IMG/VR virus record: IMGVR_UViG_3300048610_000026
Coordinates: 1 to 59,273 of that record
From: a virus
Lineage: Duplodnaviria; Caudoviricetes
DNA: 59,273 nt
Reading direction: 5' to 3' (one strand)
Part shown: piece after piece, positions 10,811 through 41,581 of the stretch
Layout of the letters: every line of letters starts with the position of its first letter
How positions within the stretch are numbered: position 1 is the first letter of the stretch
Made by a program: the position numbers and the translations under genes
Notes under the pieces: model-generated
Seen by the model: the letters and a program-made list of their open reading frames with translations, nothing else
The model's database searches: none
Told to the model about the DNA's origin: nothing

Positions 10811-10999
10811 GGAAAAGGACCCGACCACCGAGGAGATCATGCGGGTTGGCCGCTACTGGGCACGCGTCAAGGCGCGAGCCTGCTCACACAGCAGCGGGAT
10901 CACCTTCGACGTCGACAACGAGATGCGCTGCCCTGATTGCGATCAGCGGCTGTTCGTCATGTCGGAGATGCAGATCGAGGAACTACGGAAGGAGAAGCA

Positions 11000-12253
11000 G
11001 TGACAGCACAGACAGACGAGAGGGTCTACGCGGCCGAGAATGACTGGCTGCAGATGATGACGCTGGCCGACAACCGAGGTGGTGTCATCCGGTACCAGGG
11101 CGAAGAGTACCTGCCCGAGGGGTTCGTCCGGTTCTCGGGGATCGACGACATCGCGGCGTACGTCGCCAAGGTGCTGGCTCACATCGGCCGGGACGCAGAC
11201 GCGATCCACGTGGTCGATGGACGCGGCGGTAGCGCGGCGCATTTCGACTACTTCCGGCAGGAGATCCAGATCCCCAAGCGGGAGAAGGGCGGGGCATGGG
11301 CGCTGAACTCGGCGGTCGTGTTGCACGAGGTGGCGCACTATCTCAGCCCCGCCAACGGGCACACTCGGCCCTTCCGGCTGGCGTTCGTGCGGCTCCTGGA
11401 GGACCTCGGGCAGGTCGAGAATGCCCGACTCCTGCAGGCCTGCTTCAGCGTGCACAGCCTGAGCGTGCTCAAGGCCGACACCACTGAGGCGACCATCGCT
11501 CGGATCGGCAAGGTGCTGCGGCAGGCTGAGGCTGCGAGCACCGAGGAGGAGCGCGCCACGTTCCTCGCCAAGGCGCAGGAGATGGCGACCCGGCACTCGG
11601 TGACCTTGGCCACCGCACGGGCCCACCAGGCCCGCAAGGAGGAGCGCGCAGCACCTGTCGCGCGCTCGTACAAGGTCGGCGCTGCCCGCCAGCGTGGCCT
11701 GGTGCAGTTGATCCACCTGATCATGGGGATCAGCTCAACGAACGATGTGAAGTTCACGATCTACGGGGATAACTCCGGGGTCACGATGTACGGCTTCGTC
11801 GAGGACATCGACCTGACGATCGCGCTGTACGAGTCGATCCGCACACAGATGGTCACCGACTGCGAGGCCTACCTCGCGACCGACGAGTGGAGGGGTGAGC
11901 GGGTCTGGTCCGAGAAGCAGTTCGCGAGGGTTCCGATCACCAAGATCACCGCGCGACTGGCGTTCAACGACGCCTACCAGCGCAGGATCGGCCATCGGAT
12001 GGCCGAGGCCCAGCGCGCTGCTCGCAAGGCGGTCGAGACCGAGAAGCCGGAGGTCGGCACCGCGCTGATCCTGCGGGACAAGGCGGTCGAGGTGCGCGAG
12101 GCGTACGCAGTCGCGACCCGGACGATCAAGCGCTCGTGGAGTGGCGGCAAGGTCACCGGGTCGGAGCGTGCGTTCGCCGCCGGAGACCGGGCTGCCCGGT
12201 CGGCATCGATTGGTGCCGAGAAGCAGTTGACACCTACCGCTGATCAGGGGTAG
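11000..12253 (+). CDS. HEXXH metallopeptidase-like domain fused to a DUF2786-like domain
   Basis: VYAAE...VVLHEVAH...GH...F; then RIGKVLRQAE...EE...F.AKAQE (DUF2786 signature). Confidence 0.7.
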   Translation: MTAQTDERVYAAENDWLQMMTLADNRGGVIRYQGEEYLPEGFVRFSGIDDIAAYVAKVLAHIGRDADAIHVVDGRGGSAAHFDYFRQEIQIPKREKGGAWALNSAVVLHEVAHYLSPANGHTRPFRLAFVRLLEDLGQVENARLLQACFSVHSLSVLKADTTEATIARIGKVLRQAEAASTEEERATFLAKAQEMATRHSVTLATARAHQARKEERAAPVARSYKVGAARQRGLVQLIHLIMGISSTNDVKFTIYGDNSGVTMYGFVEDIDLTIALYESIRTQMVTDCEAYLATDEWRGERVWSEKQFARVPITKITARLAFNDAYQRRIGHRMAEAQRAARKAVETEKPEVGTALILRDKAVEVREAYAVATRTIKRSWSGGKVTGSERAFAAGDRAARSASIGAEKQLTPTADQG

Positions 12254-12256
12254 GTT
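12227..12256 (+). promoter_or_regulatory. SigA-type promoter for the Y RNA/Ro60 locus
   Basis: TTGACA-N18-TAGGTT immediately upstream of the structured non-coding region. Confidence 0.7.
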
Positions 12257-12260
12257 CATC

Positions 12261-12318
12261 TCTCGTTGGGCCGGGAGGCTGGGGGCGCTCCTCGGACGTG
12301 ACTTCCGGCCCAACGAGA
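12261..12318 (+). other. long 5' leader hairpin
   Basis: TCTCGTTGGGCCGG pairs with CCGGCCCAACGAGA at the predicted transcript start. Confidence 0.7.
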
Positions 12319-12354
12319 CAATTGAATAGCGCTTACTCTGAGAATTCAGGGAGA

Positions 12355-12421
12355 CGGTGAGCCGAACTCGCTGTCGGTTATCTTTTGGTGATTATCCCGG
12401 TGCGAACTAACTTGTTCACCG
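12355..12421 (+). ncRNA. Y RNA-like 1 (minimal)
   Basis: CGGUGAGCCGAA...CUUGUUCACCG terminal stem with bulged C; UCGGUUAUC motif. Confidence 0.7.
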
Positions 12422-12439
12422 CCACCCTGAGTGCTCAGA

Positions 12440-12572
12440 CTGTCGAGCCGAATGTGTTCGGTTATCCTTTCGCAAAGGGGAAGTTGCGGGTTCGAGTCCC
12501 GTCGTCGCTCCCGAGCGACGTAACTCAATTGGTAGAGTGCCTAAACGTCGGACGCAACTCCTTGTTCGACAG
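12440..12572 (+). ncRNA. Y RNA-like 2, YrlA-type with a permuted tRNA-like domain
   Basis: Ro stem CUGUCGAGCCGAA/CUUGUUCGACAG; T arm GCGGG-UUCGAGU-CCCGU precedes D arm CUC-AAUUGGUA-GAG. Confidence 0.85.
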
Positions 12573-12585
12573 GCTATAAGCGCAC

Positions 12586-12695
12586 GGTGCGAGCCGAAGA
12601 GACTTCGGTTATCTAACATTCAAGCAGCGGCTCCCGCTGCCACCACTGGGATCACCCGAGAGGGCCCGGCCCGGAACTCACTCCTTGTTCGCGCC
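12586..12695 (+). ncRNA. Y RNA-like 3 (non-tRNA internal domain)
   Basis: GGUGCGAGCCGAA/CUUGUUCGCGCC stem; UUCGGUUAUC; two internal hairpins. Confidence 0.75.
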
Positions 12696-12710
12696 ACTCA
12701 AACTTCATAC

Positions 12711-12841
12711 GCTGAGCCGAAGTGTTTCGGTTATCGACTGTTAATCGGGCGGTTGCGGGTTCGAGTCCCGTCGACCAACTAATCCTTGGTCGTAACTCAA
12801 TTGGTAGAGTGCCAAACGCCGGAGCGCACAACTTGTTCAGC
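12711..12841 (+). ncRNA. Y RNA-like 4, YrlA-type with an Asn(GUU)-like anticodon loop
   Basis: GCUGAGCCGAA/CUUGUUCAGC stem; loop CUGUUAA; T arm then D arm identical to Y RNA 2. Confidence 0.85.
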
Positions 12842-12852
12842 AGACTAACCTC

Positions 12853-12967
12853 GATACGAGCCGAAGAGTATTCGGTTATCACTGGTTCGATTCCTGTCTA
12901 GCAACTTCAAACCTTGCTAGGGCCCCGCGTTGGCAGGGGAACCCGGATCTCACCCTTTGCTCGCGTC
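12853..12967 (+). ncRNA. Y RNA-like 5 (degenerate tRNA-like domain)
   Basis: GAUACGAGCCGAA/UUUGCUCGCGUC stem; GGUUCGAUUCC T-loop. Confidence 0.75.
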
Positions 12968-12974
12968 ACTCTTC

Positions 12975-13006
12975 GGCCAGCACGGACTCCCCGTGCTGGC
13001 CTTTTT
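12975..13006 (+). terminator. intrinsic terminator between the Y RNA array and ro60
   Basis: GGCCAGCACGG-ACTCC-CCGTGCTGGCC 11-bp stem followed by TTTTT. Confidence 0.85.
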
Positions 13007-13026
13007 CTATCTGAAAGGAAACCACC

Positions 13027-14703
13027 ATGAGCATCTACAGGGACTTCCTGAACGGCCGGAACTCCACGCCGCAGAGCGAGCAGGCGAAGCCGGAGCAGGT
13101 CAAGAACTCGGCCGGAGGCTACGTCTTCAAGGTCAGCACGACCACGGCCATCGACCGCTTCCTGATCCTCGGCTCGGACACGCCGACCTACTACGCCTCG
13201 GCGCAGACCCTGACCCAGGAGAACGCCAAGGCGATCACGGCGTACGCGCAGAAGCAGGGCAACGACCTCGTCGAGCGAATCCTCGACGTCAGCGTCAATG
13301 GCCGCGCGCCGAAGAACAGCCCGGCGCTGCTTGCGCTGGCCATCGCGGCCTCCGTCGGCGACGAGGGCACCCGGCGTGCTGCCTTCGACGTGCTGCCGAA
13401 GGTGGCCCGCACCAGCACCCACCTCTTCGAGTTCGTGGAGTACCTCGACTCGATGCGCGGCTGGGGCCGTGCTCCGCGCCGCGCCGTCGGTGAGTGGTAC
13501 GTCTCGAAGACGCCCGAGCAGGTCGCCTACCAGGCGGTGAAGTACCGCCAGCGCAACGGCTGGACGCACCGCGACGTGCTCCGCCTCGCGCACCCGGAGA
13601 CGGCTGACGGCGCGATGAACGACGTGCTGAAGTGGATCACTCAGCCGGATGCGTTCACCGAGGCGACCTCGGCTCTGCCGACGTACGCCGGTCTGCCCCA
13701 GGTCATCCGGGGCTTCGAGCACGCCAAGAACGCGATGACCTCGGCTGAGGCTGCCGAACTGATCACCTACTACGGCCTGCCGTGGGAGGCGATCCCGGAC
13801 GCGTACATCAACACGCCGGAGGTGTGGAAGGCGCTCGTGCCGACGATGGGCATGACCGCGCTGATGCGCAACGCCTCGCGCGTGGCTCGCCTGCCGGAGA
13901 GCCGCGAGAAGTCGCAGATTGAGGAGGCCGTGGCTGAGCGTCTCGCGGACCCGGAGATGGTCCGCAAGGGTCGACTGCACCCGGTGAACATCCTCACCGC
14001 GATGCGGACGTACGCGGCTGGCCGCAGCCAGGTCGGGTATGGCAACGGCGGCTCTACCTGGACGCCGAACCGGCTGGTCACCGACGCGCTCGACGAGGCG
14101 TTCTACGCCTCGTTCAAGTACCAGGAGCCGACCGGCAAGCGGTACCTCGTGGCGCTGGACGTGTCTGGCTCGATGGGCGCCGAGGTGAAGCCGGGCCTGA
14201 CCGCTCGCGACGTCTCGGCCGCGATGGCGATGAGCCTGCTCGCGACCGAGCCGAACGTGGACGTGGTCGGCTTCACGGCCGCGAACACCCAGGCTCGGTA
14301 CGGGCAGCGTCGATACAGCCAGGGCTACGACCCGTACGCTGCCGCGTTGACTCCGCTCGACCTGAGCCCGCGCCGTCGGCTCGACGACAACGTGGCGGCG
14401 GTCCGGGGGCTCCCGTTTGGCCGGACCGACTGCGCACTCCCGGCGCGGTGGGCCCGCGAGCAGGGCAAGGACTACGACGCGATCGTGATCTTCACCGACT
14501 CGGAGACGTGGGCTGGTCGCCAGGAGCACCCGTTCCAGGCGCTGACGAAGTACCGCAAGCAGGTCGGCCACAAGGTGGCGCAGATCGTGGTCGGCCTGAC
14601 CGCCACGGACTTCACCATCGCGGATCCGTCCGACCCGGACTCGCTCGACGTGGTCGGCTTCGACTCGGCCCTGCCGGGCCTGATCTCGGAGTTCACCAAG
14701 TAG
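13027..14703 (+). CDS. rsr: Ro60/Rsr RNA-binding protein (TROVE + vWA)
   Basis: QVKNSAGGYVF, RFLILGS and KYRQRNGWTHRDVLRLAHP (TROVE); DVSGSM MIDAS, TDC, FTDSETW, DVVGFD (vWA). Confidence 0.95.
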   Translation: MSIYRDFLNGRNSTPQSEQAKPEQVKNSAGGYVFKVSTTTAIDRFLILGSDTPTYYASAQTLTQENAKAITAYAQKQGNDLVERILDVSVNGRAPKNSPALLALAIAASVGDEGTRRAAFDVLPKVARTSTHLFEFVEYLDSMRGWGRAPRRAVGEWYVSKTPEQVAYQAVKYRQRNGWTHRDVLRLAHPETADGAMNDVLKWITQPDAFTEATSALPTYAGLPQVIRGFEHAKNAMTSAEAAELITYYGLPWEAIPDAYINTPEVWKALVPTMGMTALMRNASRVARLPESREKSQIEEAVAERLADPEMVRKGRLHPVNILTAMRTYAAGRSQVGYGNGGSTWTPNRLVTDALDEAFYASFKYQEPTGKRYLVALDVSGSMGAEVKPGLTARDVSAAMAMSLLATEPNVDVVGFTAANTQARYGQRRYSQGYDPYAAALTPLDLSPRRRLDDNVAAVRGLPFGRTDCALPARWAREQGKDYDAIVIFTDSETWAGRQEHPFQALTKYRKQVGHKVAQIVVGLTATDFTIADPSDPDSLDVVGFDSALPGLISEFTK

Positions 14704-28904: not shown

Positions 28905-29329
28905 TGGCGCGCATCGGGGCGCTGGACGACCTCCGCGTGAAGATTGAGTCTCGACTGCTTCCTGACGAGAACGACTGCTGGATCTGGCAGGGGGCTATCG
29001 GTTCGGGGGGTCGGTACGGAAACGTCTGGTGGGACGGGAAGAGCCGACCGACACACCGCGCCTACCTCCAGACCCTCGGCGTCGACGTTGAGGGGCTGGT
29101 GGTCGACCACCTGTGCCGAGTGACGCTTTGCTGCAACCCCGAGCATCTGGAGCCGGTGACCCAGAAGGTGAACGTCGAGCGCGGTGACCTGGTCAAGTGG
29201 CGCGAAGGTCGTACCCACTGCGACCGAGGGCACGTTCTCGCAGCCGACAACATCTACACGCGACCCAGCGATGGGTACAAGTTCTGCCGAGGCTGCATGC
29301 GGCTTCACTACGAGAAGAGGGTGGCCTGA
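28904..29329 (+). CDS. HNH homing endonuclease
   Basis: CWIWQG...YG...HR...DHLC....CCNPEHLEPVT...N; THC..GH. Confidence 0.9.
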   Translation: MARIGALDDLRVKIESRLLPDENDCWIWQGAIGSGGRYGNVWWDGKSRPTHRAYLQTLGVDVEGLVVDHLCRVTLCCNPEHLEPVTQKVNVERGDLVKWREGRTHCDRGHVLAADNIYTRPSDGYKFCRGCMRLHYEKRVA

Positions 29330-30336
29330 TGGCTCGGGTAGGCGCTTTGATTCACTTCTACATCAACTGGAGGTCGGCAGGCAGCGAGAGCGTGCTGCAC
29401 AACATCCTCAGCCACCTCGCCGAGCAGGGGCACGAGGTGACGGCGTACGTCACCGCTGCTCCTCGCGGAGCCGTGGAGACCGAGTATGAGGGCGTTCGGC
29501 TGGTGCCGGTGCGCTCGGCGATGCACGGGGTCTCGAAGTTGCGAGCCTTCCAGCCGCAGGTGACCTTCACCCACCACGACAACGCGGTGGTCGCGCTGCA
29601 GATGCGCCGCCAGATCCGCTCGCGGATCATCTTCCTGACGCACAACGACATGAAGATCACCGAGACCCCGCTGCGGATGTCGCCAGACTTCGTGGTCTGG
29701 AACACCGACTGGGTCCGGGAGTCGCTGGTGAAGCGTCTCCCGGCCGCCGGGAAGTTGCAGTCGATGGTGATGCACCCGCCGCTGATCTGCCGCAACCACT
29801 ACACTCCGAGCGGTCTCGGCGACGCCATCACGCTGGTCAACCACAACGCGCACAAGGGCGCTCACGTGCTCTTCGGACTCGCCGAGATGATGCCGGAGCG
29901 GCGCTTCATCGCGGTCGAGGGTGGCCACGGCGTCCAGGTCTCGGTCCCCAAGCACCTGGAGAACATCGAGCACTGGCCGCAGAACCCCCACATGCGGCCG
30001 GTCTGGGCGGCTAGCAGGATTGTGCTGATGCCCTCGGTCTACGAGTCGTACGGGCTCGTCAGTGTCGAAGCGGGGTGCTCGGGTATCCCGGTGATCGCTC
30101 ACCCCACGCCCGGCCTGCAGGAGGCGCTCGGTGGCGGCGGGTTCTTTGCCGACCGCGACAACATCCAGGCGTACGCCGACACGATCGAGTTCCTCGACGA
30201 CCCGATGATGTACGACCACGCGTCGTCGATGGCTAAGGCCAACAGCGAGATGAAGAACGAGGAGTCCATCCGGGCTCTGGAGGAACTGACCCGGCACGTC
30301 GAGCACTTCGCTCTGCCGGGCATGCGAGTGAACTAG
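29329..30336 (+). CDS. GT-B (GT4-like) glycosyltransferase
   Basis: AGSE...H...L...GHEV; KG; LMPS.YESYG....EA..SGIPV. Confidence 0.9.
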   Translation: MARVGALIHFYINWRSAGSESVLHNILSHLAEQGHEVTAYVTAAPRGAVETEYEGVRLVPVRSAMHGVSKLRAFQPQVTFTHHDNAVVALQMRRQIRSRIIFLTHNDMKITETPLRMSPDFVVWNTDWVRESLVKRLPAAGKLQSMVMHPPLICRNHYTPSGLGDAITLVNHNAHKGAHVLFGLAEMMPERRFIAVEGGHGVQVSVPKHLENIEHWPQNPHMRPVWAASRIVLMPSVYESYGLVSVEAGCSGIPVIAHPTPGLQEALGGGGFFADRDNIQAYADTIEFLDDPMMYDHASSMAKANSEMKNEESIRALEELTRHVEHFALPGMRVN

Positions 30337-41341: not shown

Positions 41342-41581
41342 TCACTCAGCGACAGCCGGAGCGTCCATCGCAATCGCGCAGTGCGTCCACATCGACGCCT
41401 CCTGGAGTGCGGTGAACGCCAGGCTCTTCTCGCGCGAGCCCGGCAGGTTCTCGTCCAGCCACTCGGCGAACTCGCGGTACTTCAGCCGGGTGTCCCGGTG
41501 ACGCGGCAGGGTGGCGTTGTCGCCTTCCACCGTCGCCTTGTGGAAGCCGAACCGATGCTCGATCTCTTCGGGTCCAATCAC
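41342..41581 (-). CDS. Tad1/Acb2-like helical hairpin protein
   Basis: EIEHRFGFH...R....A......P.SREKSLA.T.LQEA.MW...AIA. Confidence 0.65.
   Translation of the reverse strand: MIGPEEIEHRFGFHKATVEGDNATLPRHRDTRLKYREFAEWLDENLPGSREKSLAFTALQEASMWTHCAIAMDAPAVAE

Follow-up and report, generated by a model that had tools for sequence, protein, structure and literature searches.

INTRODUCTION

In Mycobacterium smegmatis, the Y RNAs YrlA and YrlB are cut from one precursor encoded upstream of rsr and are bound by Rsr, according to the account given by Chen et al. (2014, PMC4201824), which also states that only the 5′ strand of the Ro-binding helix is recognisable in M. smegmatis and Salmonella. The introduction of that paper describes a Y RNA that tethers Rsr to PNPase in Deinococcus radiodurans and Salmonella, and its Table S2 places YrlA beside Ro60 in 22 phages. 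For the Thermus phage phiLo, the part of PMC12135203 that deals with its Ro60 reports that this protein binds two Y-like RNAs encoded upstream and that it enters complexes with the PNPase of the host in vitro. Here we analyse the virus record IMGVR_UViG_3300048610_000026 over its whole length (positions 1–59,273, the window), in which an original prediction had placed a ro60 gene behind a tandem array of five Y RNAs. Our results make it probable that these five RNAs, whose distal domains differ, dock on the phage Ro60 through a bulged-C helix. YrlA beside a phage Ro60 has been in the literature since 2014 (PMC4201824, PMC12135203), and the locus is a good example of this arrangement, not a rare expansion.

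RESULTS

A full-length Ro60 gene follows five units with a common scaffold

The gene at 13027–14703 (+ strand) encodes a protein of 558 amino acids in which a TROVE HEAT-repeat ring domain is followed by a vWA domain (Pfam TROVE 9.9e-43, vWA_Ro60 3.3e-50). The product could be matched from end to end with D. radiodurans Rsr (2NVO, 2.8e-109), Xenopus Ro60 (1YVP, 1.2e-95) and human RO60 (9NEN), and it fell into PHROG 850, ‘RNA-binding protein’ (4e-87). Judged by these database matches it is a full-length Ro60, as had been predicted for the gene 3′ of the array. The gap between ro60 and the upstream DUF2786 gene (10937–12253) comprises 773 bases, and no open reading frame (ORF) showing the third-position GC bias of the genome was found at 12254–13026. 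This gap houses five tandem units (12355–12967, + strand) built on one scaffold. The shared elements proposed earlier were all recovered when the sequence was read: GAGCCGAA stands at the start of each of the five units and TCGGTTATC within it, and the closing letters are CTTGTTC in units 1–4 and TTTGCTC in unit 5. The two ends form a terminal helix in which GAGC-C-GA, with an invariant bulged C, is paired to UU-GYUC, in the order G-C, A-U, G-U (G-C in unit 5), C-G, bulged C, G-U and A-U. Beyond this core the outer stems vary by unit (CGGT/ACCG, CTGTC/GACAG, GGTGC/GCGCC, GCT/AGC and GATAC/GCGTC), the last of them, in unit 5, having one A-C mismatch. Paired ends with a bulged C beside conserved nucleotides of the 5′ strand, and differing complementary outer stems, were present in five of five units, as the original prediction had stated. 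A second helix pairs UUCGG, located just 5′ of UUAUC, with CCGGA, located 15–20 nt 5′ of the closing motif, and the GGUUAUC motif is likewise part of the common scaffold.

A covariance model of 16 pairs (R1) was built from the five units together with the corresponding five of L002, a 58.5-kb relative phage in which the Ro60 is 79% identical and five units are kept in the same order. When R1 was run over the whole window it matched 12354–12422, 12440–12572, 12586–12695, 12709–12843 and 12853–12967, all on the + strand with E values from 1e-8 to 7e-25, and nothing besides. A model of this kind had been put forward as a check on the five proposed positions, and it returned exactly these five units in the genome, with homologues that covary (see below). 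The 5′ module of the units also agrees with published data. In the supplementary alignment of PMC4201824 the module GCCGAA..TCGGTTAYC occurs in actinobacterial YrlA from Gordonia, Streptosporangium, M. smegmatis and the mycobacteriophage ET08, and in the same paper GNCGAAN0-1G is the proposed Ro60 contact (Chen et al. 2014). The module of the window units conforms to both the alignment and the motif, with GCCGAA followed by G or UG in units 2–5 and GCCGAA without the final G in unit 1. On these sequence features, we identify all five as Y RNA-like genes that have the bulged-C helix in common.

The terminal and second helices are backed by covariation

Searches with R1 gave 53 matches in 100 sources and then 30 further matches in 23 sources, and 47 distinct homologous units from the first set were aligned (A2). 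Pairing was found in 92.9% of the cells of A2 compared with 72.8% in shuffles, none of 500 of which reached the observed value; 12 of the 16 pairs had changes on both sides, and pairing fell to 29–47% when the partners were slid by 1–3 columns. Of the 47 rows, 38 have C-G and 9 have U-A as the pair preceding the bulged C. The pairs flanking the bulge are G-U in 25 and 36 of the 47 rows, and since these would be A-C on the opposite strand, the structure is that of a + strand RNA. The second helix covaries with its distant partner (UUCGG/CCGGA, AUCGG/CCGAU, AUUGG/CCAAU, UGCGG/CCGCU and UUGGG/CCCAA). Compensation was also observed between the window and L002: the outer stem of unit 3, GGTGC/GCGCC in the window, is GATGT/ACATC in L002 (two compensatory pairs), and the A-C mismatch of unit 5 is a G-C pair there. 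An independent RNAalifold prediction on five unit-5-type sequences arrived at the same helices, and 14 of its 30 pairs were compensatory. Covariation backs both the terminal and the second helix.

A local hairpin, CCGAA/UUCGG, was considered as a conserved structure and rejected, as the changes in the second helix track the distant 3′ partner and not the local hairpin. This hairpin wins some single-sequence folds, including that of unit 3, and the Rfam tRNA model takes it for a D arm.

The distal domains differ between the units

All five units are on the + strand. Unit 1 (12355–12421; R1 41.9 bits, E 1.2e-8) has 67 nt and folds into a long hairpin with a U-rich loop. We class it as a YrlB-type minimal hairpin; the long-hairpin class fits the description of YrlB and Yrn2 in the corresponding section of Chen et al. 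(PMC4201824), and short units resembling it were found in many other arrays. Unit 2 (12440–12572; R1 100.9 bits) and unit 4 (12711–12841; R1 98.1 bits) are of the YrlA type. In unit 2 an anticodon-like hairpin (12466–12478) precedes a T arm (12486–12502), a closed 7-bp acceptor-like stem (12503–12520) and a D arm (12523–12538), and the same parts lie in unit 4 at 12735–12747, 12755–12771, 12772–12792 and 12795–12810, respectively. Both units have the T arm GCGGG UUCGAGU CCCGU, after which come the closed 7-bp stem, UA and the D arm ACUC AAUUGGUA GAGU. Unit 3 (12586–12695; R1 78.8 bits) places on the Y RNA scaffold a conserved 6–7-bp hairpin and further stems, none of them tRNA-like, and gave a weak full-length match to the Deinococcus_Y_RNA model (21.8 bits, E 0.33). 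Unit 5 (12853–12967; R1 83.4 bits) has a reduced tRNA-like domain, in which the T arm comes immediately 3′ of GGUUAUC and is followed by a closed stem of 7 bp and by a D-like hairpin; units of its class were detected in five arrays, that of the window and four others.

The original prediction had described unit 1 as minimal, units 2 and 4 as permuted tRNA-like domains with the T arm before the D arm, unit 3 as non-tRNA hairpins and unit 5 as a degenerate tRNA domain. Each of these descriptions held, that of unit 5 in the form of a reduced domain and that of units 2 and 4 with sub-threshold matches to the Rfam YrlA model (RF02553). The Rfam search that had been suggested together with them stood in one respect and fell short in another: RF02553 matched units 2 and 4, with 39 bits (E 7.2e-7) and 37.4 bits (E 2e-6), and both scores are below its gathering score of 69. 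The matches cover model positions 23–87 (unit 2) and 24–84 (unit 4) of 114, that is, the tRNA-like part only, and the score stays below the threshold because the outer Ro-binding part misfits the Rfam model. The YrlA membership of the units rests on features other than this score. A T and a D stem-loop separated by a closed acceptor-like stem are present in units 2 and 4, reduced in unit 5 and absent from units 1 and 3, and the location expected of YrlA, less than 4 kb from Ro60 on the same strand, was found for the array, whose units are on the + strand, 60–672 nt before the ATG of ro60. By their folds, units 1 and 3 are Y RNAs and not YrlA. The units do not qualify as tRNAs, since ARAGORN called no gene and the acceptor end is closed; the Rfam tRNA model scored 23.3 and 21.3 bits in the window, below its threshold of 29.

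An anticodon-like arm in the YrlA-type units

A 3-bp stem with a 7-nt loop that begins at the C of UUAYC was found in 17 of 33 tRNA-like units, one of which (L076) has another distance from the T arm and falls outside the pattern. The anticodon-like loops were tabulated for 16 units, with the register of L115:2235 and the D-arm end of L032 adjusted by eye. All 16 have U at the second position of the loop and A at the seventh, and 15 have a purine at the sixth. The anticodon loop of tRNA bears the signature U33, R37 and A38, and the letters of the 7-nt loop read as this signature. In all 16 units the two letters that come after the D arm and position 26 are complementary to the two located 3′ of the hairpin, and these two-letter pairs covary, being CU:AG in 11 units and CC:GG in 5. 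We read the so-called V hairpin as completing a 5-bp anticodon stem of canonical form, broken in its 5′ strand between positions 28 and 29, and the Ro60-docking stem as branching off at this same break. In the window the loops are UUCGCAA (12469–12475, unit 2) and CUGUUAA (12738–12744, unit 4), with the triplets CGC and GUU; an alternative drawing of the unit 2 hairpin has 5 bp and a loop of 3 nt, which makes it the weaker case. Close relatives do not preserve the triplet: the CGC of unit 2 is replaced by UCA in L002, a phage in which unit 4 is without the hairpin. The differing triplets and the hairpin-less unit weigh against a strong functional reading of the anticodon arm.

Chen et al. name the V hairpin the variable arm where they describe it (PMC4201824), and a statement in bioRxiv 10.1101/312249 has Salmonella YrlA without an anticodon loop. 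The composite anticodon-arm reading was not found in the searched parts of Chen et al. and of the YrlA structure paper. If true, it alters the printed picture of YrlA as an RNA without an anticodon loop.

Several units are usual at phage Ro60 loci

Relatives of Ro60 are encoded in 365 of 50,697 phage records, mostly annotated as ‘Ro-like RNA binding protein’. We counted R1 matches (E up to 0.1) at 21 distinct loci with a Ro60 gene, namely ten GenBank phages chosen as a spread of the 365 and eleven IMG/VR loci including the window, a sample that is biased in that nine of the eleven were found via a pattern derived from the window. The numbers of units per IMG/VR locus were: window 5, L002 5, L003 4, L004 3, L032 2, L045 4, L064 4, L066 3, L078 5, L080 2 and L082 3. 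Among the GenBank phages, BearBQ had 2, GMA2 2, FuzzBuster 1, BlueNGold 3, Bonray 2, Farewell 2, Birchlyn 2, Stigma 2, Magritte 3 and prophiGD43A-5 6, two of the latter being weak (E 0.002 and 0.013). At least two units were present at 20 of the 21 loci, at least four at 7 and at least five at 4, and at all 21 loci the R1 units adjoin Ro60, mostly just upstream and on the same strand. The rarity ascribed to a five-unit array was overstated, as several units are usual at the surveyed phage Ro60 loci and phage Ro60 with YrlA had already been published. The pattern scan of IMG/VR had returned at least 110 loci, and an R1 match was obtained at 17 of 110. The remaining pattern loci were rejected as real units and are best read, on a rough estimate, as chance matches of the 15-base pattern.

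None of the surveyed units is annotated as Y RNA; some go under the label tRNA-Thr or tRNA-Arg or have small hypothetical coding sequences (CDSs) overlapping them. In prophiGD43A-5 (L115 2229–2307) and Magritte (L123 2437–2513), GenBank features tRNA-Thr(tgt) and tRNA-Arg(tct) overlap strong scaffold matches just upstream of Ro60, and two small ‘hypothetical protein’ CDSs of Bonray (genes 233 and 234; L119 2595–2934) overlap strong matches in the same position. These overlapping features are probably mis-annotated Y RNAs. In the Gordonia phage BlueNGold (L118 5501–5838) and in GMA2 (L116 5155–5288) the scaffold matches are located downstream of Ro60, in or at the edge of a long row of tRNA and tmRNA genes, and one of them overlaps an annotated tRNA-Leu(gag). 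The survey suggests that most actinophage Ro60 genes are accompanied by several unannotated Y RNAs, and our literature search found no description of such Y RNA rows in phages.

The array lies between a candidate promoter and a terminator-like hairpin

The TTGACA-N18-TAGGTT sequence that had been noticed upstream of the array is present as a candidate promoter at 12227–12256 (+ strand), with TTGACA at 12227–12232, a spacer of 18 nt and TAGGTT at 12251–12256, and sits in the last codons of the DUF2786 gene. L002 keeps a similar site (TTGACA, 19 nt, TAAGGT). An ungapped inverted repeat at 12232–12255 (ACCTACCGCTGA / TCAGGGGTAGGT, 92% complementary) spans the promoter spacer and overlaps the −10 element; in appearance it is an operator site for a dimeric regulator. 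A leader hairpin follows at 12261–12318 (+ strand; inverted repeat I1, 94% complementary), with a 17-bp stem and a 24-nt loop. It is conserved in L002 at about 1341–1394, contains no CGAA motif and gave no notable Rfam match; it would be located at the 5′ end of the transcript of the array, which it may mark or protect. At the other end of the array, a strong intrinsic terminator-like hairpin of 11 bp (9 G-C) with TTTTT lies at 12975–13006 (+ strand), 20 nt upstream of the ro60 start codon, and is also conserved in L002. In that phage an additional ORF of ∼127 codons (2100–2483), absent from the window, is located between the array terminator and ro60.

Genome context

The phage record is rated 100% complete and has a G+C content of 65%. 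A PHROG scan identified proteins of the tail and head and of DNA packaging, as well as T7-like replication proteins, namely primase/polymerase, helicase, exonuclease, Gp2.5-like single-strand-binding protein and DNA polymerase. The capsid protein is at most 30% identical to the capsids of Gordonia, Arthrobacter and Microbacterium phages, and no match to the array/Ro60 locus was obtained when 50,697 phage records were searched by megablast. By these comparisons the phage is without a close cultured relative, and we infer that the window derives from an uncultured phage of an actinobacterial host. Near-identical DNA was found in soil metagenome runs only; no RNA run was among those listed with the stretch, which speaks neither for nor against its expression. 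Contigs of two such runs from other studies (X2 and X3) are identical to 12200–13100 of the window, with zero variants and no joints, so the same phage occurs in several soil samples. Extra read depth at 12727–12788 in the soil runs came from unrelated tRNA-like contigs. No natural variation was seen in these runs, which hence have no bearing on the structure of the array.

No tRNA gene was found by ARAGORN in the 59,273 bases. RtcB was not found among the phage proteins, as had been stated originally, and RtcA and RtcR were not searched for. In the 72 phage proteins scanned (29 against PHROGs and 43 against Pfam) no RNA ligase, PNPase or nucleotidyltransferase turned up. Since none of these was seen in the phage, any partner enzyme of Ro60 and the Y RNAs would come from the host. 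Among the tail genes, a protein of 79 amino acids (41342–41581, − strand) contains an Acb2/Tad1 hairpin domain (Pfam PF24729, 3.6e-12), the Acb2/Tad1 family being phage sponges against cyclic-nucleotide defence signals. A glycosyltransferase gene (29197–30336, + strand) is located 3′ of the DNA polymerase gene; its product matched Pfam ‘GT4-conflict’ (6.1e-10) and group 1 glycosyltransferase models.

DISCUSSION

The reading that five Y RNAs with different distal domains dock on the phage Ro60 is based on the identity of Ro60, the restriction of R1 matches to the five units, the covariation, the conservation in L002, the linkage to Ro60 at 21 of 21 loci and the published 5′ module. Transcription would start at the candidate promoter (12227–12256), pass through the leader hairpin and stop at the terminator (12975–13006), yielding one precursor of five Y RNAs, which host RNases might cut into single RNAs, M. 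smegmatis YrlA and YrlB likewise being cut from one precursor. Each RNA would present to the Ro60 ring the same docking module, a terminal helix whose bulged C is flanked by G-U pairs and then the second helix, and the distal domains would comprise two full tRNA mimics (YrlA), one reduced tRNA elbow, one plain hairpin (YrlB) and one set of other hairpins. By analogy with Deinococcus, Salmonella and phiLo, the Ro60–Y RNA particles may, in infected cells, engage proteins with which the host handles its RNA, for example PNPase or enzymes that bind tRNA. With a terminator separating ro60 from the array, Y RNA would be more abundant than ro60 mRNA. The closed 7-bp stems of units 2 and 4 match the RNase P substrate feature of M. 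smegmatis YrlA, and cleavage into two base-paired halves is therefore possible.

Several points weigh against docking of the five RNAs on Ro60 as proposed. Ro60 binding and the host partners are extrapolated from other species only. At gathering thresholds Rfam gave zero matches in the window, the YrlA model reaching 39 bits in unit 2 and 37.4 bits in unit 4 where 69 are required. The alignment A2 was fitted to R1 itself, which favours the pairing score, and its IMG/VR members were picked by a pattern taken from the window. A generic sigma-70 scan did not call the candidate promoter, because its −10 element matches TATAAT at only three of six positions; TAGGTT presumably fits the actinobacterial −10 consensus TANNNT. 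Finally, a terminator lies directly before ro60, a point that bears on the transcription of ro60 itself.

A different role for the tRNA-like units would be that of tRNA decoys for host tRNA-targeting defence nucleases or tRNA enzymes, with Ro60 mainly a stabiliser. Units 2 and 4 form a complete cloverleaf including the 5-bp anticodon stem, the anticodon-like loop letters and the CU:AG or CC:GG pairs are kept in the 16 tabulated units, the triplets of the two units differ (CGC and GUU), and the phage, which is without tRNA genes, carries another counter-defence gene, that of the Acb2/Tad1 hairpin-domain protein. Yet three of the five units lack the anticodon-like hairpin, the acceptor end is closed, and the close relative L002 keeps neither the unit 2 triplet nor the unit 4 hairpin. 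We know of no nuclease target for the tRNA-like units, and we regard the decoy role as unlikely. It can be extended to the proposal that the YrlA-type units of actinophages are complete tRNA look-alikes with triplets of their own, loaded on Ro60 as a panel of isoacceptor-like baits that divert or report host enzymes reading the anticodon loop (defence nucleases, modification enzymes), while the hairpin-type units serve other partners. This extension is speculative, and we would give it little weight at present.

The five RNAs could also be largely redundant lids or stabilisers of Ro60 that block or open its cavity, the array serving dosage and the distal domains having drifted from duplicated copies. 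According to the introduction of PMC4201824, the maturation of rRNA that depends on Rsr in D. radiodurans is inhibited by bound Y RNA. A clear paralogy links unit 2 with unit 4 (D arm 96% identical, T arm identical), and between one and six units occur per locus. Drift does not account well for the recurrence of the same payload classes (minimal, T-arm-first and full tRNA-like) in distant arrays, nor for the tertiary-contact nucleotides and compensatory stems that the tRNA-like domains keep; together these indicate selection on the distal domains and make the redundant-lid explanation improbable. A decayed tRNA gene cluster or a DNA-level repeat unlinked to Ro60 (e.g. protein-binding repeats) is very improbable and was already disfavoured, for although the T-arm and D-arm sequences are tRNA-like and GenBank labels homologous units tRNA-Thr and tRNA-Arg, ARAGORN finds no tRNA, the five units have in common a non-tRNA module with covariation and strand-specific G-U pairs, and the units adjoin Ro60 at 21 of 21 loci.

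With docking of five Y RNAs on the phage Ro60 as the preferred reading, the locus provides a clean and compact case in which a phage Ro60 and differing Y RNAs are held in one promoter-to-terminator unit. The Y RNAs that are unannotated at other loci, some labelled as tRNA or small hypothetical protein, are useful for phage annotation. Culturable relatives on Mycobacterium smegmatis and Gordonia terrae can serve as models for deletion tests of the roles of bacterial Y RNAs and their tRNA-like domains.

Among the described systems, the array resembles YrlA and YrlB of M. smegmatis and other actinobacteria in its position upstream of Ro60/rsr on the same strand and in the 5′ module GNCGAA...TCGGTTAYC. 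Further similarities to actinobacterial YrlA are the permuted order of T arm, closed 7-bp acceptor-like stem and D arm, the hairpin-type second RNA and the likely origin from one precursor. It differs from the M. smegmatis pair in having five units instead of two, in being a phage locus and in scoring below the Rfam gathering threshold; in addition, both strands of the bulged helix are clearly kept in the window units, in contrast to M. smegmatis and Salmonella, for which Chen et al. state that the 5′ strand alone is recognisable. With Yrl1 and Yrl2 of phiLo the locus shares a phage Ro60, Y-like RNAs directly upstream, a CGAA motif in a stem-bulge-stem and the proposed use of host PNPase, although phiLo was absent from the PDB sequence matches of the window Ro60 at E 0.001. 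The phiLo RNAs are two and short, with no tRNA-like domain described in the part of PMC12135203 concerned, whereas the window has five units, three with tRNA elbow features. Similar to Yrn1 and Yrn2 of D. radiodurans and to metazoan Y RNAs, the units have an end-to-end terminal helix with a bulged C and several Y RNAs for one Ro60, but the distal domains differ, the Deinococcus model matching unit 3 only weakly (21.8 bits, E 0.33). The combination of Ro60 with a tRNA-like YrlA and a second Y RNA recalls the Salmonella rsr-yrlBA-rtcBA operon; in the phage, RtcB was not found (RtcA and RtcR were not searched for) and sigma-54 control is not suggested. Unlike Salmonella YrlA, which in the statement cited above (bioRxiv 10.1101/312249) has no anticodon loop, units 2 and 4 of the window possess an anticodon-like hairpin.

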